This document shows, one piece after another, positions 1-37,989 of a stretch of 41,753 bases of DNA; the stretch's first letter is position 1, and each line of letters begins with the position of its first letter. The notes under the pieces were generated by a model. The model searched no databases, was not told the DNA's origin, and saw only the letters and a list, made by a program, of their open reading frames with translations. The position numbers were made by a program, and so were the translations under genes. The DNA is from Jimgerdemannia flammicorona (taxonomy: Eukaryota): NCBI GenBank assembly GCA_003990765.1, contig RBNJ01000098.1:1-41753 (forward strand), in the 5' to 3' direction.

Positions 1-3000
1 TGGTTGTACTTGATATAGCGCCCGCCAACCCCGATTCTATGAAAATCCTGGTGGAGAGTCCATGCACAAGATGTCATTGGCGTTCTGGATGTTGGCATGA
101 TTCCAGCACATGTTAGGGAATCCCGGTCCGGGGCCGACTTTAACGACTTGCGGCAACATGCTGTTCTCGTTACTGGTGAGAATATCAGTATTCTCGCAAA
201 TGAGAGCGACAGAAGTACGTTGGTCAGGTTTAGAAATTTCAGGAACCCGATGCCGTGCAATTTTGGGTACGCGTTTTGCGGTATGTTGGACGAGTTTGGC
301 GATGTTGACGGGACCATCATGGCTGTTACTGGCAGTTGTTCGACGGGGGATTGCAGAGGTTGACTAGGATGTGTATTCAGATCTATCTCCCTTTCTAGTC
401 GGACATGGTTATCATTCGTAGTTGTTCGACGAGATTGTGGGGTTGGCTGGGATCTGTGTCCAGGTCCTCATCCATATCTAAATACTCGATAGGAACAAGT
501 TGAATATGGACCTGAGACACTAGTCGTCCAAATGCGACACATAAGGTGCCGGCAATCTCCGGAAGGAATCGTCGCTCTTGCTACCTTGCGAGCGTGGTTT
601 CTAATGACTCGGAGGTGTTCGCAAAATGAACTGGACGATATGCGCGGTTTCCTAATTGGTCGACCGTTTGGGCTTCTCGATATGGGTACTGTGGGTGGGA
701 CGTTGTGAACACGAAATGTGGAGAAAGCCCGATGGCCTCGCTATTGCGCTGTCTAATCATCGCCGTCGAGACTTCCGCGATGGTATCCAGTGGTGTGCGA
801 ATAATTTCGGAAACACACAACACTTAGAACAGGCAACCGGTAACCTCCCTTGTGCAAGCAAGACACTTGTGGAGCCTTTCGTAAGTTTTGGTTACACACT
901 TGCGCCATTGAACATTCAAATTGTCCTGCCGCACCCTTCTCGCATTTTCAACGGCTTTTCGTTGGGTCATGACTTGTATGGGCGGGTTTTCGGAAGCGCA
1001 TTTTGCGTTTATGCTGTCGTTGGCATTGATATTGACATTAGCGTTGAAATTGGCATTGGCGTTGAGACTGGAGCCCGAGGGACGGCATCCTTTTCGAATC
1101 GAATACGAACATGGACCTTACCATTGCTTCGAGGTCAAGGTTGTAATGGATAGCGACGTCGACACGGGTGAAATGGCGGCAGCTACTTGGCGTTCCGACG
1201 AAGTGCTTTCGCCTAGTTGTACGACCCACCTTGGGTTTGGAAGATGTGGAGTCCATATGGATACAAGCAGTTTCGGGGTCTGTTTTGTTAACAGCCGCTG
1301 GGCGCTTCTTTGGAGCTACGGTGTGGATAATAGTGCTAGCAGCGGCGTAGCGCTTGGAGGATGCAGCCCCATGGCTCGTTGTAGAATCAACCACGGCGAC
1401 GTCGCTGTAGTGGTTGCAGGGCTCGTAGTTATAGATGCTATAGGACGCGTCGTGGAGCATGCCGCTAAGCGCCTTATGCTTGCAACTGTGGGACGTGTGG
1501 AAGTAGCAAGAGCGGCGCGCGTCGGGGTAGGACACGCGGGGAGCGACGTGTAATCGGCCGCGCGGCGCGTCGTAGAAGTGGCCATGTGGCGAGACGACCT
1601 TGAGTGTCGCGGTGGAGGCATCGTGATATAGCGCATCGCGGTGGAGTGCGTCGTGACCGACCGACGTTGTTGCAGCCACGCCTTGAGTGGTGGAGCGCGT
1701 GGCAAGGGAGGGCATGGTGGAGGAGTGCGTCGTGATAGAACGACGTAGTTGTAGCCAGCCTTGAGTGCTGGAGCGCGTCGCAAAGGAGGGCATGGTGGTG
1801 GAGCGCGTCGTGGTGGAGCGCGTCGCGATAGGCGGGGCGCGAGGGAGCAGCAGCCACAGGACAGCCTTGACTAGTGCAGTGGAAGACGTCGTGGTGGAAC
1901 GCGTCGTGGTGAAGCGCGTCGTGATAGTGCCAATGGGGTACAATGTAATAGGGCCTCCGGGGTGCGACGTTGTTGCGGACGCGGAACAACCTTGAGTGGG
2001 GGAGCGTGTCGAGTTGGAGGGTCGGGATGGAGGGCGTCGTAGTGGAGCGCGTTGTGGTGGAGCATGGTGTCGTGGAGCATGGTGTGGTGGAGCGCGTCGT
2101 GGTGGAGTGTGTCGTGGTGGAGCGCGTCGTAGCAGCAGCCCCGGGACGTCCTTGACTAGTGAAGCGCTGCAGTTGAAGGCTTCGTGGTGGAGCGCGTTGT
2201 TGTGGAGCGCGTCGTGATGATGCGAGTCGTGATAGGGCCAATGGAGTACGTTGTATTACGGCCTCCGGGGCGCGACGTTGTTGCGGACGCGGAACACCCA
2301 TGAGCGGTGGAGCGCGTCGAGTTGGAGGAGGTTGGGATGGAGGGCGTCGTAGTGGAGCGCGTTGTGGTGGAGCACGTTCTGGTGGAGCGCCTCGTGGTGG
2401 AGCGCGTCGTGGTGGAGCGCGCGTCGTGATAGGGCCCGCGGGGCGCGACGTAGTAGCAGCCACAATGAAGGGCGTCGTTATGGAGCGCATCGTGTTGGAG
2501 CGCGTGCCCACGGGGCTCCTCGTTGTTGCAGCCACGGGCTGGCCTTGAATAGTGGAGGGCGTCGCGGTGGAGGGCGTTAAGGTGGAGTGCGCCTTGATGA
2601 GCGCGTCGTGATAGGGCCAGCGCAGCGCGATATAGTAGCCGCCACGGGCCGGGCTTGAGTGGTGTAGCGTGTCCCGGTGGAGGGCGTCGTCACAATGAAG
2701 GGTGTCGTTATGGAGCGCATCGTGTTGGAGAGCGTGCCCGCGGGGCTCCTCGTTGTTGCAGCCACGGGCTGGCCTTGAATAGTGGAGGGCGTCGCGGTGG
2801 AGGGCGTTATGGTGGAGTGCGCCTTGATGAGCGCGCCGTGATAAGCGCGATATAGTAGCCGCCACGGGCCGGGCTTGAGTGGTGTAGCGTGTCCCGGTGG
2901 AGGGTGTCGTCACAATGAAGGGCGTCGTTATGGAGCGCATCGTGTTGGAGCACGTGCCCGCGGGGCTCCTCGTTGTTGCAGCCACGGGCTGGCCTTGAAT

Positions 3001-3260
3001 AGTGGAGGGCGTCGCGGTGGAGGGCGTTATGGTGGAGTGCGCCTTGATGAGCGCGCCGTGATAGGGCCAGCGCAGCGAGATATAGTAGCCCCATTTCCTT
3101 CAATAGAGCTTCCTAAAAGAAAATAAAAATATGCAAAAAGTCAATTCTGATATATCAACTGTCTCTTTTTTTCATTACGATAAGGTAAGATATTAATTAT
3201 ATAATCAATACTCACTCTCCCTCAACCCCTCCGACAGTGCATGCACACTTGCTGCTGACA
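1..3260 (-). pseudogene. Decayed 3' continuation of the gene above: His/Arg-rich repeat exon followed by unique sequence running off the window
   Basis: Reading through two stops (TAA 3261, TGA 3222) reaches a GTGAGT donor at 3215. A 103-nt intron ending TTTTAG at 3113 joins in phase 0 to EALLKEMGLLYLAALALSRRAHQGALHHNALHRDALH. Downstream are frameshifts and stops, a KCLACTREVTGCLF Cys cluster near 820-870, and an open frame over ~1-315. Confidence 0.45.
1550..3090. repeat. GC-rich hierarchical minisatellite: 15-nt core GTGGTGGAGCGCGTC inside ~310-bp and 220-230-bp higher-order units
   Basis: CACAATGAAGGG(C/T)GTCGTTATGGAGCGCATC recurs at 2461, 2691 and 2911. GCCTCCGGGG..CGACGTTGTTGCGGACGCGGAAC recurs near 1953 and 2261. 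Confidence 0.9.
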
Positions 3261-7629: not shown

Positions 7630-9284
7630 CTATATATATTTTTTTTAATATATTTTTCGTCGATTGGCCTGGACTAGTTACGTCACCCAGGCCAATCGAC
7701 TGACTGGCCAAAATAATCGCGTGGCTCCTTGCCCACTTAGTATACCTCCCGATCAGCACACCACTCTCCCATTCTGGCTGAACGATTTCATGAATTTTCC
7801 TCACTCACGCGCGGTTCCAAATTTTTCTCTCTCTGTGCCAACAACTGCATTCCTCGCGTGAGGATCCTGCAGTCCTCCCCCCTAACCAAGAAACATTTCC
7901 GTTCTGTTTGTGTTACCATGTTACTCTATTTTGTTACCAACCTGACAGCCCTCCTCGAAAACTTGAGACCTTCGGAATACTCTAGCTATTAGCTCCCGAA
8001 ATTTTTGAGATCATCTGAGCCTTCGCTGTCTTTTTTCTTCCTTGTCGCACATTACCTACTTTCATGAAAACCGTGGACTGCCAACGAAACTGGCTCAACC
8101 ACCAGCGGATGTCCTAACCATCACCACGCTACCCATCTAACTCCGCGCCTTCACAACGAACCCCCGAACCTCATTCGCAAAAGCCCAAAGTTCATCTCAT
8201 CTCACCAATGTCAAATTTGAGCACAGGAACACCGTCGGCGTCTCGAAATTGTTTGCACTACAACTACAGCACGACTATCACAACTAAGGGTGCGTGAACT
8301 TTGAGACGGTGCTGGGCCTCGGAGAATATGCTGGTGTTAGTTGTTTATTTGAAGGGCATGCCTGTGATGAAGGCCACCCTACGTTTGAAGTTTTTAAAAG
8401 AGACGGAGAGTGAGTGGATGGTTCCTATTATTGTTTTTTTTTTTGCCTTGTCAACTGAAATTCATTTGAATGCCAGCACATGTTCGCCCTCCGATCTATG
8501 TTCAAGGAGCGCTTCCTATATCTTTTCCAAGATATCCATTCGCTATACCAAGAGGTTGTTGTATTACATGAGAACTGAAAAATAAAAAATTCCTAACGGC
8601 GCCGGAGGCAATTGTCACAAAATGGTTGTGGTAAATGATTTCTAGGTTAAGAAAGTTTATTACTTCAGTTTTCAAGTTTATATCTCCACATTCATTTTCA
8701 CCATCATACCATAGAACACCATTCTGCTAGGCATGACATTTGTAAAAATGAGACGACGATTATATGTCCTCCCCCTAGTGAAAATAGTTTCAATGTTGTT
8801 GACATGCTGCACAGAGCCCATCGGGCGATCTTCCTGCATGCTTGTAGTTTACCTCGTTGGATATTCGTTTCATCACTTTCAGACGACATACTTACGATTA
8901 TAAGATATTGTGAGACATTGCTGGATTTAACGCGCCTTCCACCCAGAAGCTTTAAAAATGCACTTGATCTCGATGTAATTTTCGGTAGATTTCTACAGGC
9001 GGCTTTCGATCGCTCTTGGAGGAGCCCGTTCCATCAAAAGGGCAAGCGCGGGGACTTGGGAATCGGTACTGTCTTCTACTTCCTCTGCCTTTCTCCCTTT
9101 CAAATTCCTTGATAATTCCAGATATGCCTTTGGCTCAACACACCTCTCTTTTTCTTTTACTACTCTTGTTCTGTCTGCATTTTAACGAACTGGTCAATTG
9201 GACGCATTCTTGTTCAACACATACGTCCAATAAATGAAAATATGCTGAAAATTACTGACCAAAACCAAATTTTGACCATGTCCA

Positions 9285-11070
9285 ATTATACAAAACAAGC
9301 AAGATGAACACTAGAATTCAAGAATTCAAACTTTCATTCCCAGAATTCGCTCCCTACGGTTACATACTCCCCACAATTAGATATTCACGATTAGGCAATA
9401 CATACATTTTCCTTTCGGCTTCTCCTCCTACAACTCCTACTGGCCGACGCTTTTCTTGGCCTTGCCATTTACATGTCCGGCTATACGAACAAACAAATGA
9501 GCATTAGCATTCAAAAATTCACACCGTCATCCCAGCGTTCTCTCCCCACGGTTAAATGTTCCCCACGGCTACATACCAATACACATTCTTTCCCTTCGGC
9601 TTCGCCTCTTCGTACGACTCCTCCAGGCCAACGACCTTTTTGGCCTTACCCTCTACATTTCCGGTTATACGAAAATAAGCAAGAGGAGCATTAGTATTCA
9701 ATTATTCAAACTTTCATTCCCAGGATTCGCTCCCCAAGGTTACATATTATCGAATAGGCAATACATACTATTTCTCTTTGGCTTCTTCTTTTCACTCAAC
9801 CCCTCCTGGCCGAAGTCCTTCTTGGCATTGGCCTCTGCACGTCTGGTTTATGATAACAATTGTACGAAAACAGATGCGATGAACATTATTATTAATATTT
9901 CACCACAAATCTCTGCAGACATTTACATATATACTATATACAAGGGAGCACATACTTTTTCACCTTCGCAGCTCCTTGTCAACCAAATCCACTTCGGAAG
10001 GCCGAATGCCGACCTCTTCTTCAGCCTTGGCCTCTTTGTGTTCAGTTGTATGAAAACGAGCAAGATGAAGATCAACATTCAAAAACCATACTTTCGTCCT
10101 CAGAATTTGCTCCCCAAGCTAACATAATATATATCAGAAAATAATACGCTTTCCCCTCCATTGCTCCTTTTCTTCCAAATCTACCTTGGGTCAACATCTT
10201 GCTCTGCCTTGCCCTCTACATATCTAGATAAAAGAAAACAAATAAGGTTAAAATTAGTTTTCAAAGCGTTTGAAATGGATAGAACATAATGACAAAATTT
10301 TCCACACTTCCTTTCCTACCCACAGTTATTTACTAAGAAATACATACTGTTTCTCCTGGGCTCCTCTGCTTCTCCTAACTACTCCTCCGAATGCAGAGGG
10401 CCGACCTCCTCCTTGGCCTTGTGTTCTGCATGTTCGATTGTATGAAAACGAGCAAGATGGACATTAGAATTCAAAGCATTTTGGATAGCATCATATAATA
10501 ACCGTAATAACTCTGCTCTTTCGTTTTCGGTATTCGCTGCAATGCATAAACGTTATCTGCAAGAAAATACATACTCTGTCCCCTTAGCTGATCTTCTTGC
10601 TCCAATTCCTCCGAATGCAGAGGGCTGACCTCCTCTTTCGCCTTGCGTCCTGTATGTTCCATTGTAATAAAGTGAGGGAAATGATTAAAATTGAATATAT
10701 TAGGGAGAGAGACATATTAGCCAAAAAACTACACACTTTAATTCCCAGCATTCCTTTCAACGCCTACATTACAGCTATCTAAAAATACATATTCTTTTCT
10801 CAAGACAACTCCACTTCCTCTAACCCCCCCTCGGAGTACAGATGGCCTATCTCCTCAGCCTTGCTCTCTGCGCATGAAGAAATTAGTATTCCATTCATTG
10901 GGAATAGAATCATACAAAAACAAAACAATTCCACATTTTCGTTTTCGGAGTTTGCCACCCTCTTTAACATATTATCTGAGAGACAATACCTATTCTTCCT
11001 CTTTGGCCGCTCCTCCTCAAAATCATCTTCGGAACACAGGGGGAATTTGTAATCGACGACCTTTACTAAT
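9285..11070 (-). repeat. Tandem array of about 9-10 exon+intron modules (~180-220 bp) encoding Lys/Glu-rich peptides
   Basis: On the - strand most units have a GTATGT donor, a CTAAT branch point, a pyrimidine tract and a YAG acceptor (CATGTAG/CATGCAG). Measured exons are about 63-78 nt, 3n, phase 1, e.g. GKAKKVVGLEESYEEAKPKGK and ANAKKDFGQEGLSEKKKPKRN. Some contain stops. Confidence 0.8.
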
Positions 11071-11319
11071 GGGAGAAGGCAAGACAAGAAAATATTTTGG
11101 CGAGAATAAAAACCACATACCAAATGACTTCAATCAATACATCTAATGCATACCTCTTCTGAGCTTCATCCCATCCGCGTGGCGGTTGTCGTCGTACGTC
11201 ATCGTCCTCGCGCCCTTCGTTTTCCTATTTTCACCACCTGTGTTGCCCAGTGAGATAGAGAAGGAAAGGAAGGAGGTTAGTAATATTTAACGATTTAAAG
11301 CATCAATACCATCGCCCTT

Positions 11320-11785
11320 TATGATCGCCACTCCACGTACCATCTGTTGGGTGTCAAAAACGGAAATAACGACTCCTGACCCAGCATCGCTTGGCGAATA
11401 ATACGTACCCTGGTGTTGCAAGAAACTCTTGCACATTGCCGTCCCACTTCTCAATCTAGATGAATACGAAATTGTCGATTTCGCCAACGCTAATTGTCTT
11501 GAAGATATTCTTGTTTTTAACCCTTAGAGATATCTCCATCTCCCGCTGGAAATCGCGCAAGTGAGCCGGTTTCAGCCGTTTCGAGAAGAATTGGACGGCC
11601 GTTGTACGAAAATCAGGATGCCGGGCTTCATGCGCCAAACCGAAAGATCCTGCCCCAGCTCCCAGATCACGGAAAGGTCGGCATTGACACAGGAACCAAA
11701 GTAGAAAAAGGTAAGGTCGGCTTCCTCAGTGAGAACGTATTCGGAAAGATCGGGTTGCTCGTCAGATGGGTCGCCGGGTTGACCT
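11320..11785 (-). pseudogene. Protein kinase pseudogene fragment (subdomains I-V plus start of VIa; no C-lobe)
   Basis: With one frameshift and one stop: WELGQ(G)SFGLAHEARHPDFRTTAVQFFSKRLKPAHLRDFQREMEISLRVKNKNIFKTISVGEIDNFVFI*IEKWDGNVQEFLATP, then a GTACGT..CAG intron and MVRGVA. The spacing of the Gly loop, alphaC Glu (FQREME), KNI and hinge matches eukaryotic protein kinases. Confidence 0.8.
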
Positions 11786-12419
11786 TTGGAGATAGCGAAA
11801 GAGGGAACATATACTCTCTCATATACTTTTGCTCCGTACTTGCTACTCAGAGAACTCTAACACCAAATAAATAAGTATTAATAACAGTATAACATACAGG
11901 TTGGTTGTGAAGAACTATTCTGGAAAACGTTATGGTCGTCGTTCCGGCTCATGAGTTTGGTGTTAAATAAGATTGCTATGGCAACCATAAGACTTCCACG
12001 TCCAAAATAATATCCACTATGTCAATCTCCTCAACTTCATCAATATCATTTATTATGCCATCGATTTCAACTGTTGTCATTCTTTTTCGATGTTGATAAT
12101 ATCTTCCTTTCCTCTTTGGTTAGACTGTTGAGGTGCCTGAGGAAATGCGAGTTGACTCTCCAGAGAGGGGTGGCGCCCAAATAGGTGCCGGACATTGTAG
12201 AGTGCGTTATTGAGGATGCAGTTGAGATGCCATCCAGATTATTTTCGTTTTCGTTTTCTGCTATGATAAATTGAAGCCTGTGCGATTCCTCTTGCATGCG
12301 AAAGAAACGATACCACCTGGTGATGGAGGGGAATTGCAGACCTTTCCGAAATGGTGACGGAGCGCCGATATGTCATCCCGCTTGAGTGTGTTCAGATTTA
12401 AGCCAGTCAAAATGACCTC

Positions 12420-15400
12420 CTTGGCCGGCATTGCACGCCGTTGACTGGAGTTGGTGACCGGAAGGTTGCGGGCGTTGTTGGGATGTCAATCTGTCGCCGT
12501 CATCTTAAAGAAGATATTTATCGCCCCCAGGTGTCGCCTAGAGTTTGGGGTTTGATTCCGCAGACTTACCTTTAGGACAACAAAGGAGGGGAAATAAGCC
12601 TCAGTCAAATACTATACGTTAAGGGCTGTCGATCGTACGTCTTACAGAAAACGAACTCGTCAACAACGGGGATGCCTCGGATTAAAACGATTTGTTGGTG
12701 GCCGCACAGTTTACCTTTTGGTTATTCTACATATTTGCATGTGACAGAAAGTGTTGATATGTCGCTCGGTCGCCTCCAGTTTCGAGATTTCGCCCCCAGA
12801 CTATGCCGCCCCAAATGTCGGATATAGGTCGGTTCTGACAATGAAAGAGGAGGAATAAATACGTCAGTCAAATAATATACGTCGTGTGCTGTTAATCGTA
12901 GTTTTTGCACAGAAGAACTCGTCACCAAATCCCAGTATATTAGGATTAAACAAGCAATGTATTATAGAGAGCACAGCATACTTTTGATAGTTCTGCATAT
13001 TAGCATTGCACGTCACTGACAAATATTAGGTGACAGGAAGGCTGTAGACACTATTGAAATGTCGCTCAGTCGTCTTCGGCTTCGAGAAGAGATTCACCAC
13101 TTAGGTTTCGCACCCAAATCGCGTCGCCTCGAGTTCGGGTTTTGGTTCGGTTGCCTTGCCTTTGGGGAAATAAAAGAGGTGGAATAATATGTCAGTGAAA
13201 TTCTATGCACCGAGGGCTCTTAATGATAGTTCTTGAACAAAACGAACTTGCCGCCAACAACTGCGATGCTTCAGATTAAATTAGCGAAGTATTGACGGCA
13301 GCGCAAATACCTTTTGGTTGTCCTGCGTACTGGCATTGCACGGCGCTGACAGGAGTCGGTGACAGGAAGGCTGAGTACATTGTTGAGATGTCGCCCGGTT
13401 ACCGTCAGCTTCGTGAAGAGTTTGATAGCAGATGGTTTTCCCCAAGATCAAGTCACCTTCAGTTCATTTGACTTGCCTTTGCGACAACAAAAGAAGGGGT
13501 ATAAATATGTCAGTCAAACACTATTACGTCGAGTTCCATTAATCGTAGGTCTTACGTCGACAACATCTGGAATACCTCGAATTAAACAAGCGATCTGCTG
13601 GTGGCAGCACTGCAGACCATTATTTTTCTGCGAATTAGCATTGCACATCGTTGACAGAGTTGGTGACAGGAAAGCTAAGGATATTGTTGTTATGTCGCTC
13701 GGTCGTCGTCGGCTTCCAAGTGTCGCCTCAAAATCAGATCGTGTCGCCTCGAGTTCAGGCATTGCTTCGGTTGCGACAATAAAATAAAATGGATGAATAT
13801 ATTACTTTAGTTAATTACCATTGCGTCGTGTGCTGTTAATCGTAGGTCTTGCACAAAACAAACTTGTGCCATCAACTGAGATGCTTCGAATTAAACAGGC
13901 GATGTCTAAGAGGGAGCATAACATACCTTCTGGTTGTTCTAAATATTGGCATTGTACGTCGTTGACAATGAGTTGATAACAGGAAGGCTGCGGACACTGT
14001 GGAAATGTTCCTCGGTCGCAGTCAAGTTCAAGAAGAGTTAGTTTCACTGTGCAGGTGTCGCCCCAGATCGCATCGCATCGTGGATTCTCCTGTCTTTCCT
14101 TTTGGACGACAAAAGAGGAATAAATACATCAGTCAAATTCTATGCGTCGAGGCTGTTAATTGTACATCTTGCACAAAATGAACTCTTCGCCAACAACTGG
14201 GATGTTTCAGATTAAACATACCATGAATTTCGTTTGTTTTGCACGCCTTTGACAAGAGTTGGTGAAAGGTAGGCTGCCGATGTGGTTGATAAGTCGCTCC
14301 GTCGCCGTCAGCCTCGAGTTGTCGCCCTCCAGATTGTGTCGGCTCTAGTTCGGGTTTTGGTTCGGTTCTGAGGAGGAACAAATAGGTCAGAAATACTATG
14401 CATCGAGTGCTGTTAAACCTAGTTCTTACACAGAAGAACTCGCCGCCAACAACTGAGATATATTGAATTAAAGAGCATAGCGTACCTTTTGGTTATTCTG
14501 CATATTGGCATTGCACATCGCTGACAAAAGAGTTGGTGACAGGAATTCTGTAGACGTTGTGGAAATGTCGTCGGCTTCGAGAAGAGTTTCACTGCGCAAG
14601 TGTCGCCCCCAGATCGCATCGCCTCGAGTTAGGGCTTTGGTTCAGCTGGCTTGCCTTTGAGACAATAATAGAGGAAGAAAATACATCTGTCAAATGCTAT
14701 GTGCCGAGGGCCCTTAATCATAGGTCTTGCAAAAGACGATCACGTCACCAACAACTGGGATGCTTCAGATTCCACAAGTGATCAGAACAGCATACCTTTT
14801 GGTTGTTCTGCTTATTAAAATTGTTCTGCATATTGACATTGCACAGCGTTGACGCCAGGAGGCCTGCCGACTTGTTGAAATGTCTCTCGATCGCTGTCAG
14901 TTTTGAGAAGAGTTTCGCTGCACAGACATCGCCTCCGGAACATGTCGCCTGGCGTTGGCTTTGTTAAATTGAGAAAACGAAAGAGGAGGAATAAATACGT
15001 CAATCAAATACTATTGCGTCGAGTTCTGTTAATCGTAGATATTGCACAGAAGGAACTCGTCGCTATCATCAGAGTGGCAACGCAGCATGCCTTTTAGTTG
15101 TTCCGCACATTGGTATTGCACGTCGTTAACAAGGGTGCAAGAAGTGTTTGATAGCAGAGGTGTCGCCACCAAAACCTGAAGCCTTCAGTCCAGTTGACCG
15201 GCAATAAAAGAGGAATAAATAAGTCAGTCAAACCCTATTTCCCCAAGTGCTGCTAATCTTAAGCCTTGCACAAAACGAACTCGTTACCAATGTCTGGGGT
15301 GCCTCGGATTAAACAAGTGATTTGTTGGTGGCAGCGCAGCATATCTTTTGGTTGTCCTGCGAATTAGCATTACACGTCGTTGACAAGAGTTGGTCACAGG

Positions 15401-18160
15401 AAGGCTGCGGACGTTGTTGAGGTATCGCCCGGTTATCGTCGGCTTCGAGAAGATTTATCGCGCAGTTGTCGCCCTCAAAACGTTCCGCCTCGAGTCCGGG
15501 CTTTGATTCAGTTTGCTTGGCTTTAGGTCAACAAAGGAGGAAGAAATACGTTAGTATAATACTATGTGTCGAGTGCCGTTAACCGTAGGCCTTGCGCAAA
15601 ACTAACTCGTCGCCAACAAATGGATGGCAATACAGCATACTTTTTGGTTGATCTGCATATTGGCATTGCGCATCGTTAACTAGAGTTTGAAACAGAAGGG
15701 CTGGAGACGTTGTTGAGATGTCGCTCGATCACCGTCAGCTTCAAGAATTTGATAGCAGAGGTGTTGCCCCCAGAACATGGCGCCTTCGGTTCGGTTGACT
15801 TGCCTTTGGGGCAATAAAAGAGGATAAATAAATAAGTCAGTCAAACAATATTGCCTCTGGTGCTGTTAATCATAGGGTCTTACACAAAACGAGCGCATCG
15901 CAATCATCTGGGATGCCTGGAATTTAACAAACAATTTATTTGTGGCAGCACAGCATACCTTTTGGTTGTTCTGCGTACTGGCATGGCACGTCGTTAACAA
16001 GAGTTGGTGGCAGGAAGGCTGCGGACGTTGTTGTGATGTCGCTCGGTCGCAGTCAGCTTCGAGGAGATTTGATTGCCTTCGGAGCATGTCGCTTTCGGTC
16101 CAGTTGACTTGCTTTTGAGATAATAAAAATGGAGGGATAAATAAGTCAGCCAAATGCTATTGCGTCGAAAGTTGTTAATCCTACGTCTTGCACAAAACGT
16201 ACTCGTCAACAACTGAGATAACAAGCGATGTATTGGTGGGGGGCACCGCCAACGGTTCCGTTCTGCATATTTTCATTGCCCGTCGTAGACAGGGCCGGTG
16301 ACAGGAAGGCTGGGGAAATTGGTGAAATGACGCTCGGTCCTTGCAGATTCGAGAAGAGTTGTGTCGCACAGGTGTCACTCGTAGTCGAGTTTGGGCTTTT
16401 ATTCAGCTGACTTGCGTTTGGAACAATGAAAGACAAGAAATAAATACGTGACTCAATATATATGCGCCAAGATAGTTGTTTGCCTGTGGTTCAGTTGACT
16501 TGCCTTTGAGAAAAGGGATAAACAAGTCGAATACTGCGACGTGGACCTGGATCAACCATTGCAACAAAATCGGAGGAATAAATACGTCAGTCTAATACTA
16601 TTGCGTCGCGTGCTGTTAATCGTAGGACTTGCACAATTCGAAATCTTCACCAACACCTGGGATTCCTCCGATTAAACAATTGATTTTCTGGTGGCAGTAC
16701 AGCATACGCTTTGTTTGATCTGCATATTGGTGTCGCACGTTATTGACAAGAGTTGGTGACAGGAAGACTGTGAGATGTCGCTTGGTCGCCGTCAGCCTCG
16801 TGAATTGTTTTACCACGCAGGTGTCGCTCCCAGAATGAGTTGGCTTTGTTCAGTGGACTTGCCTTTGGGACAATAAAAGAGGAGAGATAAATAAGTCAGT
16901 CAAATACCATTGTATCGAGTTCTGTTAATCGTAGATATTGCATAGAACGAACACGTCGCTAACAACAGGGTGACAACGTAGCATACCTTTCGGTTGTTCT
17001 TCGCATTGGTATTGCACGTCGTTGACAATATTTGGAGACAAAAAAGCTGTCAACTTTGTGATATGTCGCTCGGATGCCATAAGCTTTAAGAAGAGGTTGG
17101 TAGCAGAGGTGTCGCACCCAAAACCTAAAACCTTCGGTCCAGTTGACTTCCCTTGCGACAATAGAAGAGGTCAAATAAATAAATCAGTCAAAACCTATTA
17201 CGTCGCTGCTAATCGTAAGCCTTGTACAACACGAACTCGACGCCAACATCTGGGATACCTTGAATTAAACAAGCAATCTTTTGGTGGCAGCACCGCATAC
17301 ATTTTGGTTGTTCGGCGGATTAGCATTGGCCAGGGACGTCGATATGTATATAACTCGGTCGCCGTCAGCTTCGAAATGACGCACCCCAGATCATGTTTCC
17401 TCGAGTTTCGACTTTGGTTCTGGTGACAATGAAAGAGGGGGAATAAATACGTTATTCAAATACTATGCGTCGACCTAGGTCTTCCACAGATGATCTCGTA
17501 ACCAACAACTGAGATATTTCGGGTTAAACATGCGATATATTTGAGGCAGCACAGCACACCTTTTGGCTGTCTGCATATTGGCATTGCACGTCGTGGGCAA
17601 GGAGATTTGTGATAGGAAGGCTGCGGAGGCTAGCGAAATGTCGCTCGGTCGCCGTTAACAGTGGGGTCGCCTCCAGATCGTGTCACCTCGAGTTCGGGCT
17701 TTGGTTCGGTTGACTACAATATGAGGAGGAATAATACGTCAGTCAAATACTCTGCGTCGTGGGCTCTTATTCGCAGGCCCCACACAAAACGATCCCACCT
17801 CCAACAACTGGGTTGCTTCAGAATAAACAAGCGATGTGACAGTGGCCAGCATGGCATACCTCTTGGTGGTTCTGCATATTGTCATTGTACGTCATTGGCA
17901 GGAATTTGCGACAGGATGCCCGTGGAAGTTGTCGATATACCGCTCGGTCATCGTCAGCTCCGAGAAGAGCCCCGCCGCGGAGGTACCGTCCCCTGAACAT
18001 GTTCGGTTGCCTTGCTTTTGGGACAATAAAAGTGGAGTCGGTCAAACACTATTGCTAATCGTAGGTCGTGCACAAAACGAACTCGTTGCAACAACTTGGT
18101 GGTAGCACAGCATACGTTATGGTTTTTCTGTATACTGGTGTCGCAGGTCGTTGACAAAGA
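12420..18160 (-). repeat. Tandem array of about 20 diverged exon+intron modules (260-330 bp)
   Basis: The anchor GAATAAATACGTCAGTCAAA (+) recurs about 20 times from ~12590 to ~18040. On - the unit reads CTGAC branch point, pyrimidine tract, AAAG|exon|AAAAG GTATGC donor, ~150-nt intron. Confidence 0.9.
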
Positions 18161-18249
18161 TTTGGAGAGGGGAAGGCTAGGGACAGGGGAGGGCTGGGTA
18201 TTTTGTAAAATATTTCGACGAGGGAGGTAGTTGGGAATGAATATCGGAA

Positions 18250-18430
18250 TATTATTCTAAGGGAAAGGAGAGATTAGGAGGCAGGAGAGAGTTCGAAGGG
18301 GAGAAGAGTTCAAAGGGGGAAGAGGGGAGAGGGAGAGATAGAGGATAGTGAAAGTTCGAAGAGGGAAAGAGAAAAAAGGGGGGGTGGGGGAAGAGGAAAG
18401 GGGCAACAGGAAAGTCATGTGGGTGTGTGG
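18250..18430 (-). promoter_or_regulatory. CT-rich leader, putative transcription start region of the 9.1-18.4 kb minus-strand locus
   Basis: Long polypyrimidine tract on - directly upstream of the first donor (GTATGC at 18115). CT-rich leaders are typical of fungal promoters and 5' UTRs. Confidence 0.4.
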
Positions 18431-19011
18431 CGTTTAGCATCCTAATCATGGGACTTTTATTTTTGATGGTCACGCAATTCTAGGCGTTAGACAAATGGTC
18501 AATGAAATTATTTTATTAAACTCTTATGCAACCTTCTATTACCTTCTATTACCAGGCCTTACAGGGCCTCTCTTATATGGCCTTCCCAATATAGAAGTCT
18601 CTCTAATATGAAAGCCTTCTGAATAGTATTAAGAATCGTTCTTACCATGTTATGCTGGAAGGATTCCAACTGGTGTTGCTCTTTTTGATGACCCGTTGCA
18701 AGAACGTGGGGAACTCAGTTGAAAATATTTGTTAATCCCCGTCCTTCATAACGACACCACTGCCCATCACTGTGGCTGCGAGAAGGCCGTATTCTTTGAG
18801 CGTAGGTTGCGCACGTTCGACGAGCGGATTGTGTGAGTAGACCGGAATTCTGAGCTCTTTAGTGGGGGGTTTATTTGGGGGAAAAAATAGAAGAGAGGAC
18901 GGAGAACGGAACGAATTTGATGGAAGTCAAAGGCTATTTATTCCCTTATCTAAAATGTAGGTTGTTCATCGAATTATTTGAATTGTTGACGTTCAACTTC
19001 ACACGCCAAAA

Positions 19012-19045
<34 letters not shown>

Positions 19046-22684: not shown

Positions 22685-25620
22685 CGATCCCAGTTGAGCC
22701 TGGCCTGACTAACACCCTCGCCAAAACACGTCAAGGCTAGTCACAATTCCCAAGTCTTTGCCTCGTTTGTCAACCAAAGGTCCATTGCGAAGGACCTTTC
22801 TCTTGACTTACCCACATAGACTTCCTCATTCGAACATTCTGGGGGATCTGTACAACATACAACAAACAGTAGCTCAAGGTCACTTTGTATTTGTTTTTCG
22901 CGGAGAAAGTGTCTATCACCGTCAATCGATCCATTGTTCATGTCCATTCTCCAACTTTCATCCAGACTATCTGACCATCGCTTCCAGTTAAACCCACACC
23001 CTCATCAAGATTCATAAAAGCTAGCCAAGATTCCCAATCTTTGTCTCATTCGCGGCTCGATGACGCAGAGCAAACAAAGGCCAGCTACTGCGAAGGACCT
23101 TTCTCTTGACTTGCCCACATCGACCTCCGTGTTCGAGTGTACACTTTGGGAAACCCATCCAATATCCAGCCAGCAGCAATTCAAGGTTAGATTTTTGTTG
23201 CTTTTTGCGGATAAAATATCTGACATCGTCCATCGTCCATCGTACCATTGTTCATCATCCGTCACGTCCTTCCTCCAACGTTCATCCAGATTATCCAACC
23301 CTCGCCTGGCCCTCATCACGGCTCGTCAAGGCTAGTCAAGATTCCCCCAGCCTTTGCCTCGTTCAACCATATGCCAGCTATTATGAAGGACCTTTCTCTT
23401 GGCTTACCCATATCGACCTCCACATTCGAGAGGACATTCTGAGGGATCTGTCCAACATCGGTAATCGTCTATCGTTTCATGGTTCATTATCCATCATTCA
23501 TTGTGTCCATTCCCCAACATTCATCTAGACTGTCTGATCCTCGCTCCCAGTTCAGCCTAGCCCTGGCTGACACCCTCACAAGAGTAGTCAAGATTACCCA
23601 GCCTTTGCCTCGTTTGTGGCTCGATGTCGCCGAGCAACCAAAGGTCAGCTATTGCGAAGGACGTTTCTCTTGACTTGCCCACATCGACCTCCGCATTCGA
23701 GTGCACACTCTGGGAAATCCATCCAATATCTATTCCAGGTAAGATTTTTCTTGCTTTTTGCGGAGTCATCCTCTATCGTTCATCGTTCATTTGTCGTGTC
23801 CATCCTCCGACGTTCATCCATATTATCCGACCCTCGCATGGCCATGGCCATCACCCTCATCAAGACTCGTCAAGGCTAGTCAAGATTCCTCAGCCTTTGC
23901 CTCCTTCGTGTCTTGTTGAGGCCGAGCAACCATTACGCCAGCTATTACGAAGGACCTTTCTCTTGACTTACTCATATCGACCTCCGCATCTAGACGATCT
24001 ATCTAGTATCCGTCATCGCCCATCGTCTCATCGTCCGTTATCCATTCATCGTTCGTTATCCATAATTCATCGTGTCCATTCCCCAACATTCATCTAGACT
24101 GTTCGATCCTCGCTCAGTTCAGCCTAGCCCTGGTTGACACCCTCGACAAGACTCAAGAGTAGTCAATGTTGTCTCGTTTGTGGCTCGATGTCGCCGAGCA
24201 ACCAAAGGCCAGCTATTGCGAAGGGATGATAGTTGATCCCCAGAATATGTTCTCGAATGCAGAAGTCGATGTGGGCAAGTCAAGAGAAAGGTCAGTGAAC
24301 CGCAGCTCAAGGTAAATCTTAACTTTGCTTTTTACAGAGAAACCGGTTGTCATCATCTAGCGATCCATCGTTCATCATATGTCCAAATTTTATCCAGATT
24401 ATCTGACCCTCGATCCCAGTTGAGCCTGGCCCTGGCACGCACTCTCGTTAAGAGTCACCAAGGCAAGACAAGATTCCCTAATCTTTGCCTCATTCGCGGC
24501 TTCATGTCGCCGAGCAACCAAAAGCCAGCTATTGCGAAGGACCTTTCTCTTGACTTGACCACATCGACTTCTACATTTGAAAACACATCTAAGGTAATGT
24601 AGTTAACATACAACCAACAGCAGTTCTCTAGGTCAGTTCCATCATTGCTTTTCTCGGAGTAACGTCTGTCATCATCTATCGTTCCATCGTTGATCATCCG
24701 TCATGTCCATCCTTCAATTTTCACCCCTGGCTCACACCCGCATTAAGACTCGCCAAGGCAAGTCAAGATTCCTTTATCTTTGCCTCATTTGTGGCTCGAT
24801 TCGCCGAGCAACTAAAGGCCAGCTATTCCTTTCTCTTGACTTGCCCACATCGACTTCTGCAAAGGAGACACATTCTAAGGGATCAAATTAACATACAAAC
24901 AACAGAAGTTCAAGGTCAGTTCCATCTTTGCTTTTCGCGGAGAAAACGTCTGTCATCAATATTGTTCCATCGTTGTTCTGTCATATTCATCCTTCAACTT
25001 TCATCCAGATTGTCTGACTTTGGATCACAGTTGAGCCTGGCCCTGGTTCACACACCATCGTCAAGAATCGTCAAGGCAAGTAACGATTCCCTAGTCTTCG
25101 TCTCGTTTGTGGCTCGATGTCGCCGAACAACCAAAGGCCAGCTATTGCGAAGGATCTTTCTCTTGACTTGCCCACATTGACTTCTGCATTCGAGATCACA
25201 TTCAAAGGGATTTAATTATAATACAACCAACAGCAGTTCAAGGTCAGCTCCGTTGTTCTTTTCGCTGATAAAACGTGTCATCACCTATTGTTCCATCGTT
25301 GATCGTCAGGCATGTCCATCCTCCAACTTTCATCCAGCTTATCTGACCTTCGATCCCAGTTGAGCCTGGCCCTGGTTCATACCCTCGTCAAGGCAAGTAA
25401 TGATTCCCTAGTCTTTGTCTCGTTTGTGGCTCGATGTAGCCGAGCAACTAAAGGCCAGCTATTGCGAAGAACACATTCTAAGGGATTTAATTAACATCCA
25501 ATCAACAGCCGTTCAAGGTCAATTTTTCCTTGCTTTTCGCGGGGAAAGTGTCTGTCATCTTCTATCATTCCATTGTTGATTATATGTCATGGCCATCCTC
25601 CAACGTTTATCCAGATTGTC
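22685..25620 (+). repeat. Tandem array of about 10 exon+intron modules (240-370 bp), Ser/Leu/Arg-rich
   Basis: The core GCTATTGCGAAGGACCTTTCTCTTGACTTGCCCACATCGAC recurs about 10 times. Acceptors are TTCATCCAG or TTCATCTAG; donors are AAG|GTCAGT, GTTAGA, GTAAGA, GTAAAT. Two measured exons (24398-24631 and 25009-25242) are both 234 nt. Confidence 0.88.
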
Positions 25621-26628
25621 CTTCGTAGCCCACACGTCGCTTATTACCATCCGACATCCATTAGGTAAGTCTTTTAGATTATGGTAGTAGATATATACAG
25701 ATGGGCGGGTGTGGCTTTGTAGAAGTACCGGCTCATTGTCTGCCTTCGGCTATCCACGTTTGTCATCGGCTATTATCGTCTGTCATCGGCTACATAGTCC
25801 ATCATTCCATCGTTCATCATCCGTCTTGTTCAAAATGCATTCAGAGAGTCCGACACCGTCCATACGTCATCTGTGGCCCGTTTCCATCTCCCCAACATCC
25901 CACATCCCATAGGTTCATCTTCACCAGCAATGGCAATTCAAAGTTAGGTTTTTATTTTTTTATTTCGTGTCGTTGAATAGAATGATGGATTTCTCCTGAC
26001 TATGAGCATCACCATCGTCCCCCCTTCCGCATAGTTATGAAATCTAATCTTTCTAACGTTCCCCTTTCTCAAACCCACCGATTATTATAATTTCTCCGAC
26101 CCTCGCATCTACAATCCTTCCCGCTATTTTTTTTACTCTTTCGCCATGGCCACGAAGGTATGTTTCCAGCAACTCTGGAAGCACAATGGGAGTGTGCGTA
26201 ACTTGGGGGTAGTGTGCTTCTAACTATGTGAGCGCATTTGTTTGATGTGTATTGCTGCCAATGCGAGAACGACCAACACATGCTCACAAATCGAATTATT
26301 TCAATTTCACGATATATTAAATGCTAGAAGCACGACGGTGTTATGCAACTCCAAAGACTGTTGAATGTTAGTTTCTGTTGTCTTCCATTAAAACATTCAA
26401 CTTGTTCAACGACTATTGGATATATACTTATTACACGTCTTCCCATTCGTTTAAAAGGAAAACTACGCCGCAATACCAACGACGACAAGAGATACACTAG
26501 GGTTGTTTGCACAGCCACCAAGTTGCCTGTCCAGTTGATTGGAGCAGTGACCTGGACCGTGTTGAAGACCAACTCCAACACCCCAATGAAAAGGGGCTGC
26601 GGTGGTAGCCATGGCACGTGTATCACGC

Positions 26629-27170
26629 GAACGTAAGATATGCCAAATGATGATTCCCCCCAAACCAGCTTTCAATGCTCGAGAACAAAAGCGGGGTGCG
26701 AAACTGATGGTCTTGGAGCGTTTGCACAACTCTATGGGTCACATCGTAGGCTGCTGGGTGACGCCCTGTGACTCTTGCCTGGAGCAGCATCCGGTGCTGT
26801 GCCGAAGGGCATACGTCACACCTAGAACGTGCCAATGATCGACGATCTGTAGTAGTGACCACAATGGGTATGGTTATGTGTAGCGCAGATGGATGCGGAC
26901 GAACGTAAGTAACGCCAAATGATGATTTTCACCCATATGAGATGCCAATGCTCAAGAACATATACGGGTGCGAAACTGATGGTCTTTAAGCGTTTGCACA
27001 ACTCTATGGGTTACATCGTAGACTGCTAGGTGATACCCTGTGACTCTTGCCTGGAGCAGCATCGGGTGCTGTGCCGAAGGGCAGCCGTCACACCTAGAAC
27101 GTGCCAATGATCTACAATCTGTAGAAGTGGCCAGTAATGGGTATGGTCGTGTGTAGCGCAGATGGATTTT
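26629..27170 (+). repeat. 272-bp tandem duplication of an intron+exon module
   Basis: Donors GTAAGA 26633 and GTAAGT 26905; acceptors CATCGTAG ending at 26749 and 27021; the copies are highly similar. Confidence 0.85.
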
Positions 27171-30191: not shown

Positions 30192-32357
30192 TCAACACGA
30201 GTTGCAATTATCCACATACTCCAGCCAAAGCTCCTCAACCTCGCCAAAAGGTTTCCGAAACTCGCTTCTGGCAACCTTCTTCCATCGCTCCACTTCGTCG
30301 AACCTCTTGAGCTTCCCGTACATCTTTCCGATCAGTAATGCGAGGTCGACGCGGGTGAGATTGATCCCGGCAGAGCACGGTAGGTACTCGAATACCTCGA
30401 GTAGCGCCTGGACCGCCTGATTGATCCGGCCAAGGCAAGTGTTCAGTTCGGCAAATGCAGAGAGCGTGCGGACGAGGCCGATAGGATGTTGGTGTGGCTG
30501 CAACGCGGGCGGTGCCATTTTTGTGGCCACACCGCTGGCGGTAATATTCTTTTTGCCCAGGCGCGAGCGGGTGGATGTTATCGCACCAGTGCTCAAGTGC
30601 GTCTTGCGAAACTCGTCCATGATAATCTTCAGGCGTGGCATCATGCCCACATTGCCGATTTGAATTTCCGGCTGCGTGAATTCGTCGAACAGCTCTGCGC
30701 GGCAATGCCTTTCCTCTGGCTGCGCCCGCTCAAAGTCGCAGAGTGGGCAATGGCATTCAAAATTGCGCTTTTTGAGCTTCTTAATGGGAACTTCATACAT
30801 ATCTAAGACTTCGATATACGTGACGCAGACCTCCTCGCCCTCGCTAAGGTCACGAACCACGCGAATAAACATGAAGTCACCGATGTTGAAGAAGTTTGCA
30901 TTGGGGAGGCACGAATGATTAATTAGGGGCGGTTTTCCTGAGTTGTTTGTTGGGAAAATAGTGGCGGCCAGAGGTCGCCGTGGATCGCAAAGCTGTTTGC
31001 AACAACAGTGTTGGTAATGCGGGCGATGTCGATTTCTGCGGCCTCCGTTGCGTTTGTATGATTCGTGGACATGGGCGGCATGTTGGTGCCGCCATAGAGC
31101 TTGTAGAGTTTAGTTGCCATCCACGACTCTTCTTCAATTTTTTGATGATTTTGTCAACGATGTCTGGAATGAATATCCCTCGAAATTTACCGCAAATGCT
31201 TTGGAGTACAGAATCAGTGTTCCTTCCCCAATTTCCTTCGTGGCCACTATTCCACGGCCCTTTCCAGGAACCTCAGTGACGCGCACAGGCCCAACGTAAT
31301 CGGAGTGGTCCAAGTAAGGTAGGCACGTCGATGAAGCCTCTTGCAAAATGCCAATGACGTCGTACTGACCATACCTTTGTTCCTCGAGCCGCTGCCGCGT
31401 GCGTCGAGACAGCTCTTGCGTCTCTGCGGTCGCTCTGCTCAACATTTTTAAGCTAATGCATGCCTCCTCGTAGGATCTCATGGCATTTAGTGCCTTGAAT
31501 TGACGAAATCGTACCTTTGGATTCCCTTCATCAAGTTTGAAAGCCATCTCGGCACATTCCAGCGCTTTCCCGAACTGCTGCAGTTGCAAATGTACCTGAA
31601 CTCTGTTTGATAGCAGTACAGCGTCCAGCTCCAGTTCCAAGGCTTGAGTGCAGCTATCGATAGCTGATACGTATTCTTTACGATTGAATTGTTCGTTTCC
31701 CCTCCGTTGCAAGTCGCCAATATTTCTACTCCGAGGCTTTGATTGATTCTTGACGAGGAGACCATACATGATTGACACCGTATTGCACTACCGCAATCCG
31801 GCTAACAACAGTTCATCGACCTGCTTGTTCGGCACCAGTATCACATCGTCCAGGGAATCGCACCGGAGCATTGGGAGGCCATCCTCCGCAAAAGTTTCGT
31901 AGTAAAGATCCTTGATGAAGAGGCCCAACACGCACACAGCACACCACTTATATTGAAGTTGTAGAGAGACAGGTGAGCCCTCGTAACTTTCTTCGCCTGT
32001 GCGGCAGACGGCCCTTCACCAATGATCCTCGATTTCTACATGGACGGCAACGGAGTGCATAGGTTTGTTGATAGTGCGACAGACGACGACACGGCGACGG
32101 TGCATAGTATGCAGGCGGAGTTGGGGGAGGATGGCGCGCTCGAGAGAATTGAACTGAGTTATGGACGATTGAGGACACAGTCCGTGGAGGTTTAACGAGG
32201 AACTAATGGCAACAGTAACATTTGTTGGAGAGATGGAGCTAATGTATCCACGGAAAGTAACTGTCGTTGGGATTACATCGACAGCCAAAAGATAAAAGGA
32301 GAAAAATAGTCGTGTGTCGCCCGAAGATGATGGCTTGTGAGTTTGGTGACGCCCCAT
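30192..32357 (-). pseudogene. TPR- and SET-domain (SMYD-like) lysine methyltransferase pseudogene
   Basis: N-terminal VCRTINKP..VEIED..LSLYNF..IKDLYY..LRCDSLDDV. TPRs: GNEQFNRKEYVSAIDSCTQAL, LLSNRVQVHLQLQQFGKAL. SET-N: GKGRGIVATKEIGEG. SET-C: LINHSCLPNA...RDLSEGEEVCVTYI. Post-SET: FECHCPLC. Several frameshifts and stops split it across ORFs. Confidence 0.9.
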
Positions 32358-33282: not shown

Positions 33283-36200
33283 TCAGGTGACACAAGACTC
33301 AGACAATACTTTTGACAATGTTTTTGATAAAAGGTGACTAATAACATAGATGGCAATAATCATACTAATGAGCATATAGACCAGGGGGGCAGCAGTGCCT
33401 TTGACTGGCAACATGTAGGAAGGAGGAGCAGTGATGGTTTGGGAATGCCAGGGCCTTCTTTGGTGGGATGTGACACTGGTAGTAGAGGAAGAGGCAGATT
33501 GAGACAATAAGGAGAGAAGTGAACAACCTTTGCTGACAAGGTCAAGATGGGGAGAATGATGTCTGGGCTGGATAGTTGGCTGGGCCTGGGGAAGTCTTTG
33601 ACAGCTACTGCTGGGGGATGGGCAGGGGCCCTGTTGGGAGGGTCAGGCAGTAGAGGAGAGGGGGGAGTAGGGGCTGAAGATGTGACAGCTAATAGAGCTG
33701 TGACTGGGAATCTGGAAAAAAATCCAGATGTGATAGTGGTTGGTAGTTCAGGACAGGAGAGGAGCATGAGGCCCAGAGACCTGGCGGATGGTGTGATGGG
33801 CTTGGTAGTGGCACTATTACTCAAGAAATCAAGGTCAGAATTTGCCATCATGTTGTATTCCTGGGGCTTGGCAGTGACTGCAAGGATGATCTTGGGGCTG
33901 GTGGTGCAGGAGGCAAAGGGGGCAGCATCAGTGAAGTTCTTGAAGAGGAAGGAAGGGATTGAGGTTGGGTTTGAGGAAGTGGAGTCACTGTTGGCAGCTA
34001 TGGAGAAGAGGGTAATAATGGGAGGAGTAGTGATCTCTATGGTCAGATATATATACTGGGACCCCCAGGTGGTGCAGTTGACAGTACTGGATCTTTCTAC
34101 AGTGTTGAGGGAGAGGGCCAGAGAGTTGATTGTGGAAGTAGTCAAGGAGTATGAGGAAATAGTGGATATCAGATTCAGAGTCTGGGAGGGTACTGAGCTC
34201 TGAACTGGAGATATTGATATCTGGATGAGGCTGGCAGGAAAGGAGAACATAGGGAAGATGAGGGACTGGCTGGCAGCTCTCAAGTGGGGTCAGGTGGAGT
34301 GCAAGGTCTCATGGGTGAAAGGGATGCAAGAAGAGAAGAAGGATTTGCTGAAGGCTCTAGAGGATCTGGCAGGAGTAGTTGAGAGGAGGAGATTGGTGTG
34401 AAAGGAGTATGAAGCCAAGACAGTAGTGGAAGTGATGGATGGCAAGAGGATCAGGATAGACCAGGCAACCTGGGAGAAGAGGCAGGGGAGGCAAATCCAG
34501 AAGGAGCTGCTGGAGAAGTTGGGTGATAGTGGGACTAGCAGTGGTATAGAAGATGGTGGTGCAGGACTGTGAGAGAGTGCCAGGGCTGGGGAGTACAGGA
34601 CAACCCAAGACAGGGCTCAGGGGGGACCAAGTAAGGAGGGACAGGGGGGCTTGGAGGCAGATGCAGAAATGAGCAAAGGAGTACAACCTCAGTATAGCAT
34701 CCCAGGGGGGGCTGGGGTGAGGAGGAATTGCTAGATGTGCCTGAGGAGGAGTGGGATGAATTAGTAAGGAGGAGCACTCTGGTGGACCCAGTGATGGGGG
34801 TTGAGAGGATCACCCAGAGGGCTGCTGAGGTGGTAGATGAAGAGAAGTGGCTGTAGAGGATGCTGGAGGGGGTGGCAGTAGAGTAATTAAAGAGAGAGGA
34901 CTTCTGGGTTATGGAAGATAGGTATTGGGAGGAAATTCTTCATGGTGAGGAGGTACTGAGGAAGGTTAGGAATAAGATTCTGGCAGTACTCTTGGAATCA
35001 GTTGAGTATCAAGTGGACGATCAGTGGGAGGAGGAACTTCAGGGGGTTATGAATGACTGAGCAGTATACTTGTGAAATTCAAGAAAGGGCTTGGAGAAGT
35101 GGAGAGTAGTCTGTGCAGATTATCAGGTGGATATGGAGGTGGTGAATGGGGTGGAATGTCAGGAGATCTTGGAGGCATTGGATGTATAGACTGTAGAGAA
35201 AGGTGACCTGAAGGCAGAGCAGCAATTGAATCTGGCTGGGGATGAGACAAGCATAGAATACTAGGCTGGGTTCTCAAATTCAAACATTATTCAATATGAA
35301 CAGTACAACTAGAATATTTTCTTTGAATATGAATGAGTTGAGGGGGGCAGCTTGGCAACAGTTCATATTTGGTTGGCTTAAGGAATTGGATGCAGATCTC
35401 TTCATACTACAGGATGTATATTATGAGGCAGATGTGGACTTCCACAATTGGACTAGGGAGTGGGAGGGGGCAGTTTGTGGTTTGGGTGGGTGGGTATCCT
35501 AGTTTGAAAGGGGATGGGGGACATTGGAGATATTGGACATTAGGGGAATCAGTTAGTATAGAGAGTGTAGAAGAGGCCTGGATGAAGCCCTTTAATGGTT
35601 GGATCATGTTATTGCCCAGCAGAGAGGGGGGAGTGGGTAGACTGGATCAGAAATCTGTAAGAGGCTGGTGTCATGGGGGAAGCTGAGATCAACTGCCTGG
35701 GGGGGGATTTCAATATGGTAAGGGATAATGTGGTGGACAGGACCAATGGTGGGAGAGGAATGAGGGGCAAAAGTGGTGGATTGGATGATTGGATGGGGAT
35801 GGAGAGGTTGAGTTTTTTGATGGATTTGGGGAGACAGTTCTGGGAAGATTGTCAAATTTACACTCACTGGGTGATAGGGCTGAGTTCCAGAATCAACTGG
35901 ATGCTGACAGCAGAGTGCTGGGGAGTAGATATCTGGGCCACACTGGAGGTGGTTTGGTGTCCATGGTCTGATCACTGGGGTCTGCTGGGGGGGGGGAGGT
36001 TTGGGGGAAGTGGGGATGGGCCTGGACATTGGAGACTGAATTTCTCTTTGTTGGAGGATGGGGATTTATAGATTGGCTGAGAGGTGGAGGTTATTGGAAA
36101 AATCAGTCAGTGGCAGGAGTGAGGCCTGGCAATTGGAGATCATTGGAGGAGGCTGAAATTGAGTGCTTAGGGATATTGGAGGGAGGCAGGGAAAGGAAGG

Positions 36201-37688: not shown

Positions 37689-37989
37689 TTTTGATGCATT
37701 CTAGTCAATATCTGGATCTGTGCAAAAATATTTTGCTTTGGTTTTCGAACTGTCCTAGAACTCTCAAAATTACACCCAGATATGCCTCTAGTTTCTGAAC
37801 AATCCTATCCAGATGCTTCATATATATATATTTATATTACAATTGTATGAAATAAGAATGCAGCAGATGATAGACCACAGGATATAAGGTTATGATGATG
37901 ATTACTTCACCTGCAAGACAATAATAGACTGCAAAATGATGATAATGGACTTAAAAATGATAATAGACTGCAAGACAAAGATATTACAA

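Follow-up and report, generated by a model that had tools for sequence, protein, structure and literature searches.

Homologous exons in tandem are known from several settings. In mutually exclusive clusters of the Dscam type they are coding, fall into one length class and are used one per transcript. In the SNORD116/115 cluster and the mouse Ipw exon repeats, tandem units of a non-coding exon and an intron are spliced serially into a long non-coding RNA, and each SNORD116/115 intron holds a box C/D small nucleolar RNA (snoRNA), which is the conserved part. Repeat-rich fungal genomes contain transcribed pseudogenes and gene relics that are driven by a promoter and spliced, with their reading frames destroyed. 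Tandem exon duplications have also been described in untranslated regions (UTRs), for example in Drosophila hydra with its nine homologous initial exons, and the UTR duplicates in the parts of that paper considered here serve as first or last exons, either alternative or mutually exclusive (Ivanov & Pervouchine 2022, PMC9013439). Here we describe a locus in a 41,753-nucleotide (nt) stretch of Jimgerdemannia flammicorona (contig RBNJ01000098.1 of assembly GCA_003990765.1, forward strand; hereafter the window), in which some twenty copies of an intron-exon unit follow one another on the minus strand. The array probably arose long ago, when a module of exon and intron was amplified in tandem within a locus that is still transcribed and now non-coding; it is spliced serially through the signals that each copy carries.

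Searching with nhmmer, with one unit and then with a profile, we found 20 copies of a unit of about 300 nt (254-329 nt). They occupy 12427-18186 and all have minus-strand orientation, in agreement with a preliminary description of the sequence that had reported an array of about 20 copies on that strand; neither the single unit nor the profile found a further copy elsewhere in the window.

12427 to 18186, minus strand: tandem array of intron-plus-exon units, delimited by nhmmer matches, donor positions and the unit alignment.

The donor position is present in 19 of the 20 copies, the remaining one, which is the last, being truncated, and an additional partial copy is inserted in the unit at 16707-16254. 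After the units had been cut at the aligned donor position and aligned, pairwise identity between copies ranged from 62 to 81%, with a mean of 70%. The array went unreported by Tandem Repeats Finder because the copies are no more alike than this. Divergence is star-like, i.e., copies far apart in the array are no less alike than close ones. We also considered a higher-order repeat and rejected it, since the best partners lie 2-10 units apart (81% identity for u17300 and u15344) and follow no regular period. Substitutions amount to 18% from the consensus, and their transition/transversion ratio of 1.34 together with a mild C>T excess makes no strong signature of a mutation bias resembling repeat-induced point mutation.

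Within the unit, a donor-like motif (..AAAAG/GTATGC, the slash marking the exon edge) could be aligned in 19 copies; its first two letters are GT in 17 of these, AT in one and GC in another, and the exon 3' end directly before the donor GTATGC reads ..AACCAAAAG. The array introns are 101-162 nt long, apart from one of 297 nt where the extra partial copy is inserted, and 4 of 19 lack 31 nt of their 5' part. A branch-like YTRAY is found in 17 of 19 introns, with an exact CTGAC within the last 65 nt of nine, and pyrimidines account for 63-81% of the last 27 nt before the AG. The order of branch motif, pyrimidine tract, AG, exon and donor that had been noticed by eye is thereby confirmed as the anatomy of the unit.

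Splicing of these units was observed in the contigs of two public runs from two studies (X1 and X2), whose labelling as RNA is a guess. The contigs of both runs contain at least 13 canonical joints, appearing as CT..AC on the plus strand and thus as GT..AG on the minus strand. Three of the best-supported joints listed lie in the array, each exactly at an intron that had been predicted before the contigs were compared, and at least 10 canonical joints lie downstream of the array, between 9480 and 11407. The following array introns are removed.

12835 to 12981, minus strand: array intron of 147 nt, GT..AG, from the joint of 12834 to 12982 in X1 and X2.
13765 to 13926, minus strand: array intron of 162 nt, GT..AG, from the joint of 13764 to 13927 in an X1 contig.
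12570 to 12714, minus strand: last array intron, its cut ambiguous by one G; the pieces 12714-12834 and 11339-12569 abut in an X2 contig of 2587 nt.

Spliced joints, whose absence would have counted against the preliminary description, do exist. Furthermore, the 2587-nt contig contains three successive exons in series (13159-12982, 12834-12714 and 12569-11339), and an X2 contig of 1010 nt is bounded by 18323-18116 and 16861-16662, and the 585 nt between these two pieces would be filled by four predicted exons, which sum to 593 nt. The ends of contig pieces coincide with the predicted exon starts 13159/13158, 13764, 15520, 16410 and 16861 and with the donor 18116. The units are spliced serially, one after another, and are not picked singly; because neighbouring exons are joined in one contig, pick-one use is excluded. 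Of the sampled 31-mers from 9000-18500, a share of 0.43 is present in X1 and 0.21 in X2, and the share of 31-mers lying wholly inside our spliced model of 30 exons and 5011 nt is 0.434, so that X1 fits a library with exons and without introns, that is RNA, by a coincidence of two numbers that is no proof.

Copies with a decayed donor are informative as to how the array is processed. The exon at 16410-16254, whose own donor has become GTTGGC (at 16253), is extended in both runs to 16203, adjoining a cryptic GTACGT at 16202.

16203 to 16410, minus strand: array exon 16410-16254 with a 51-nt extension, from pieces in X1 and X2.

Similarly, the exon at 13764-13618, with the donor GTCTGC, is 43 nt longer in the contigs and ends at 13575, adjoining GAG/GTATTC. 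For the exon at 15520-15345, with ATATGC in donor position at 15345, the contig reads on into the intron until the contig ends.

The transcription unit extends on the minus strand from at least 18323 to about 9300, and thus beyond the array on both sides. Its parts outside the array are as follows.

18116 to 18323, minus strand: first exon seen in the contigs, from pieces 18116-18315 (X1) and 18116-18323 (X2).
11407 to 12569, minus strand: long exon of 1163 nt, from pieces 11407-12365 (X1) and 11339-12569 (X2).
11236 to 11406, minus strand: intron downstream of the long exon, from a GT..AG joint.
9481 to 11235, minus strand: second exon-intron array, from contig joints, unit alignment and exon translations.

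The first exon consists of a CT-rich leader followed by the 3' part (about 70 nt) of an array exon, and ends in the donor ..ATAAC/GTATGC; a loose contig end is present beyond 18315, and the true 5' end lies at or upstream of 18323. In the leader there is a 17-nt tandem repeat (18284-18324), of which X2 has one extra copy after 18295, so that strains differ in the number of copies. Some 700 nt upstream of the first exon, at 19008-19044, the plus strand has 37 consecutive A (T on the minus strand), perhaps the tail of a retroposed element.

In the long exon the truncated last array copy (12569-12427) continues into unique sequence that is without a long open reading frame (ORF) in three-frame translation. 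Its donor differs by run, as X1 joins at about 11407 and X2 continues to 11339, adjoining a second GTACGT; either the 5' splice site is used alternatively or the strains differ. The second array is made of 9-10 units of about 190-225 nt, with exons of 39-132 nt, whose translations are K/E-rich and interrupted by stops, and introns of 87-151 nt; every one of its nine or ten introns is removed at GT..AG in the contigs.

The main array had been described as lying upstream of a kinase fragment, and a kinase-like piece is indeed located within the long exon.

11459 to 11725, minus strand: kinase-like N-lobe relic inside the long exon, a sub-threshold match to Pkinase.

Against the Pkinase profile (PF00069) this piece scores 13.6 bits (E 0.045, profile positions 8-70), short of the gathering cut-off of 31.7. 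It contains a glycine-loop-like LGAGAGSFG and is interrupted by an in-frame stop (..NFVFI-stop-IEKW..), after which the exon ends about 17 codons on and the K/E-rich mini-exons begin; an uninterrupted domain with a catalytic loop was not found in it. The N-lobes of JAK2 and JAK1 match at E 0.07-0.18, beside equally weak matches to unrelated proteins, and a word-indexed protein search with the 89 amino acids (aa) of the piece returned no relative. It represents a dead N-lobe relic at best, and the description as a kinase fragment is not sustained.

Investigating the lengths of the array exons, we took the first AG past the pyrimidine tract as the exon start in all 18 complete exons, which gave 155, 154, 119, 165, 155, 157, 153, 163, 176, 92, 163, 169, 146, 172, 147, 166, 178 and 120 nt. 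The preliminary description had considered all exons to be of length 3n+1, having measured five of them; four of these measurements (178, 166, 169 and 163 nt) are correct. The fifth, given as 154 nt at 15959-16112, would have as its first letter the G of the AG at 16113-16112; with the legal acceptor the exon is 16111-15959, or 153 nt. Over the 18 complete exons the classes 0, 1 and 2 modulo 3 contain 4, 8 and 6 exons (chi-square p = 0.51), and the length difference is divisible by 3 in 49 of 153 exon pairs, as often as expected by chance. The class 3n+1 is that of the ancestral unit of about 166 nt, since blurred by insertions and deletions of any size.

With frames counted from the exon 3' end, the 18 exons contain 21, 31 and 22 stops in the three frames, and seven of them are closed by stops in every frame. 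The exon consensus, which had been thought nearly stop-free in all three frames, has 1, 0 and 2 stops by frame, and its dinucleotide shuffles have 4.7 ± 1.5; a count as low came up in 419 of 2000 of them, so that its openness does not go beyond chance. The test for a third-position substitution bias that had been suggested gave no three-base periodicity (column entropy by position modulo 3 of 0.720, 0.744 and 0.748, Kruskal p = 0.84, with a similar result for the intron as control), and columns of intron and exon are equally conserved (identity 0.825 and 0.811, p = 0.23). None of 12 stop-free exon translations, among which all three frames are represented, matched a Pfam family at E <= 1, a 58-aa exon translation from one of the three exon frames had no relative among 1.84 billion representative proteins, and a protein search with a 74-aa open stretch after the array was likewise without relatives. 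Two ORFs run across the array on the plus strand (13350-13787 and 16974-17426), the strand opposite to all splice joints, and have no Pfam match. In the spliced model the longest stop-to-stop stretch has 156 codons, and no continuous open frame runs across the exons. Thus, the array RNA cannot encode a protein of any length, and the array as a protein-diversification device does not hold up. Three options had been put forward for the array, of which a pick-one exon cassette for a kinase N-terminus is at odds with the joining of neighbours in series and with the seven closed exons, and a repeat read in three cycling frames with the stops in each frame, the mixed lengths and the missing codon periodicity. 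The third, an amplified non-coding 5' leader, is the only one left, given that the array is transcribed and serially spliced without coding signal, although it is followed by no intact kinase gene but by the long exon and then the second, decayed mini-exon array.

The view that the array is a drifting relic has to be weighed against several observations that speak for another origin of the data or for some selection. The reading of X1 and X2 as RNA comes from the GT..AG joints and the word share, as no run is recorded as RNA, and the inclusion of every array exon, or of nearly all 19, extrapolates from the best-supported joints listed, beyond which there are 92 more. Several long-range joints are non-canonical (e.g., 15777 to 17681 and 16507 to 18265), and could reflect exon skipping, paralogues or assembly chimeras; for such joints, and for those with extra letters, paralogues or chimeras are the probable source. 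Moreover, 98 of 160 X1 pieces are only 90-95% alike to the window, which implies that paralogous arrays are expressed elsewhere. The GT is retained in 80% of copies, ranking 22nd of 327 dinucleotide columns, and the retention ranks of GTATGC (24 of 323) and CTGAC (32 of 324) are also high, so that the splice motifs are kept somewhat better than average; this could reflect weak selection for splicing and hence some function. Finally, the real exons contain 74 stops compared with 97.7 ± 6.4 in their own shuffles, none of 300 being as low, although this deficit merely repeats the result for the consensus because the copies share ancestry.

In the main rival reading, the splicing of the repeated modules would be maintained because the multi-exon RNA is useful. 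It could act as a multivalent scaffold, as a leader whose many junctions and upstream ORFs (uORFs) throttle or mark the transcript, or by giving rise to small RNAs from its introns. In favour of such a selected non-coding RNA or regulatory leader, the splice motifs rank for retention among the best 7-10% of column windows of their length, 17 of 19 donors still have GT despite a pairwise divergence of about 30%, identical joints recur in both runs, which come from two studies and of which one is 1-5% diverged from the window, and the second array of the transcript is fully spliced as well. However, exon and intron interiors are equally conserved, several hexamers that play no part in splicing match these motifs in retention, RNAalifold found no conserved pair within 18 aligned introns, and Rfam gave no match at gathering score or at E <= 1. 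The grounds for refutation named in the preliminary description thus led to a divided result, spliced joints being present and the splice motifs being better kept than other parts of the unit, but only modestly so. In addition, between X2 and the window the array exons differ at 24 of 883 positions and the unique exon at 16 of 1231 (Fisher p = 0.023), and this faster divergence of the array exons is the opposite of constraint. Taken together, we regard a selected RNA as unlikely. The more specific idea that the two arrays form a selected fungal long non-coding RNA or leader in which the roughly thirty rounds of splicing are themselves the point, providing junction marks, uORFs or copies of a binding motif, is decidedly unlikely. 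If the RNA were selected, the expressed paralogous arrays elsewhere in the genome would form a family.

The same evidence bears on the remaining explanations. A host of the SNORD116/115 kind, with throw-away exons and a small RNA in each intron, would match the architecture of a non-coding exon and an intron of about 150 nt, in tandem and serially spliced, as well as an intron that is conserved as well as the exon; yet the searches of Rfam and the folding of the aligned introns named no candidate, the intron consensus contains no C box (RUGAUGA), and the introns lacking 31 nt of their 5' part fit poorly with a small RNA in each, which makes such a snoRNA host very improbable. That the joined forms are DNA, i.e., retrocopies or intron-less paralogues in the genome, would be allowed by the guessed kind of the X1 and X2 libraries, but a source of this sort is hard to reconcile with 13 or more different GT..AG joints, with a word share equal to that of exons only and with pieces that stop at exon edges, and we consider it highly improbable. 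A protein-coding array, either as a mutually exclusive cluster or with rotating-frame exons feeding a kinase N-terminus, could appeal to 3n+1 as the commonest length class (8 of 18), to the one open frame of the consensus and to the length of the open stretches, which reach their maximum across 3-4 exons. Given the joined neighbours, the exons closed in all frames, the lack of periodicity and of any protein relative, and a downstream kinase-like piece that is sub-threshold and stop-interrupted, it is extremely improbable.

In the old amplification within a non-coding locus that we favour, one module of intron and exon would have been amplified to about 19.5 tandem copies inside a minus-strand transcription unit, each copy presumably carrying along its own 5' splice site, branch site, pyrimidine tract and AG. 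Because each copy has its own signals, to the spliceosome the array would be a normal succession of short introns and exons, and the mature RNA would contain in series up to about 19 homologous exons of about 150 nt, then the 1.16-kb exon with the kinase-like relic and then the smaller array. The copies would drift almost neutrally, and in a copy that lost its donor a cryptic intronic donor would be used or the contig would read on into the intron. The locus would accordingly be a relic, pseudogenised or non-coding, and not an RNA under selection, and the array may have originated when the exon-intron module underwent unequal crossing-over or replication slippage.

Elsewhere in the window, an apparently intact gene with TPR and SET domains is located at 30192-31787 on the minus strand, for which only two proteins were found at E <= 1e-5 among 2314 candidates, both from Jimgerdemannia flammicorona (68% and 64% identity), which points to Endogonales (Mucoromycota) or their vicinity as the origin of the window. 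A reverse-transcriptase fragment at 37050-37439 on the plus strand (RVT_1, 27.7 bits against a cut-off of 29.6) probably represents a decayed retroelement of the type without long terminal repeats, and ORFs near it (35661-36986) matched no family. Further tandem repeats are found at 1640-3090 (GC-rich 15-mers and 2.8 copies of a 220-nt unit), at 23000-25500 (2.3 copies of a 317-nt unit, with repeated ORF peptides on the plus strand), at 26628-27167 (two copies of a 272-nt unit) and at 37989-39321 (arrays of 15-, 18-, 36-, 60- and 72-nt units).

Overall, the locus offers a natural example of how splicing copes with amplification, in that about twenty copies with their own signals are still recognised and cryptic donors take over where the original ones have decayed. 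The case is relevant to the multiplication of new exons and introns and to the origin of long, many-exon non-coding transcripts in fungi. It is also a warning for annotation, as textbook splice sites and few stops do not imply coding.

Compared with the systems introduced above, the array has tandem homologous exons with conserved splice sites in common with Dscam-type clusters, but differs from them in that 7 of its 18 complete exons have no open frame, length classes are mixed and exons are joined to their neighbours. With hosts of the SNORD116/115 type it is alike in architecture, yet it is without an Rfam family, without the boxes and without a conserved fold. It resembles fungal gene relics in being still spliced with destroyed frames and in its neighbouring debris of repeats and reverse transcriptase, and is unlike the usual ones in being dominated by two internal exon-intron amplifications. 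In the literature on serial non-coding exon arrays, only a general paper on tandem exon duplication turned up (PMC9013439). The array agrees with the definition of a tandem exon duplication, as adjacent homologous exons have their own splice signals and their introns are removed at GT..AG in what we infer to be RNA. As far as the parts of that paper considered here go, tandem exon duplication in UTRs is the closest described phenomenon: both have homologous tandem exons with their own splice signals in a non-coding region and with support from RNA data, and the array of J. flammicorona stands apart from those UTR duplications by its serial joining, its roughly 19 copies, its age (70% identity) and its fungal host (PMC9013439).

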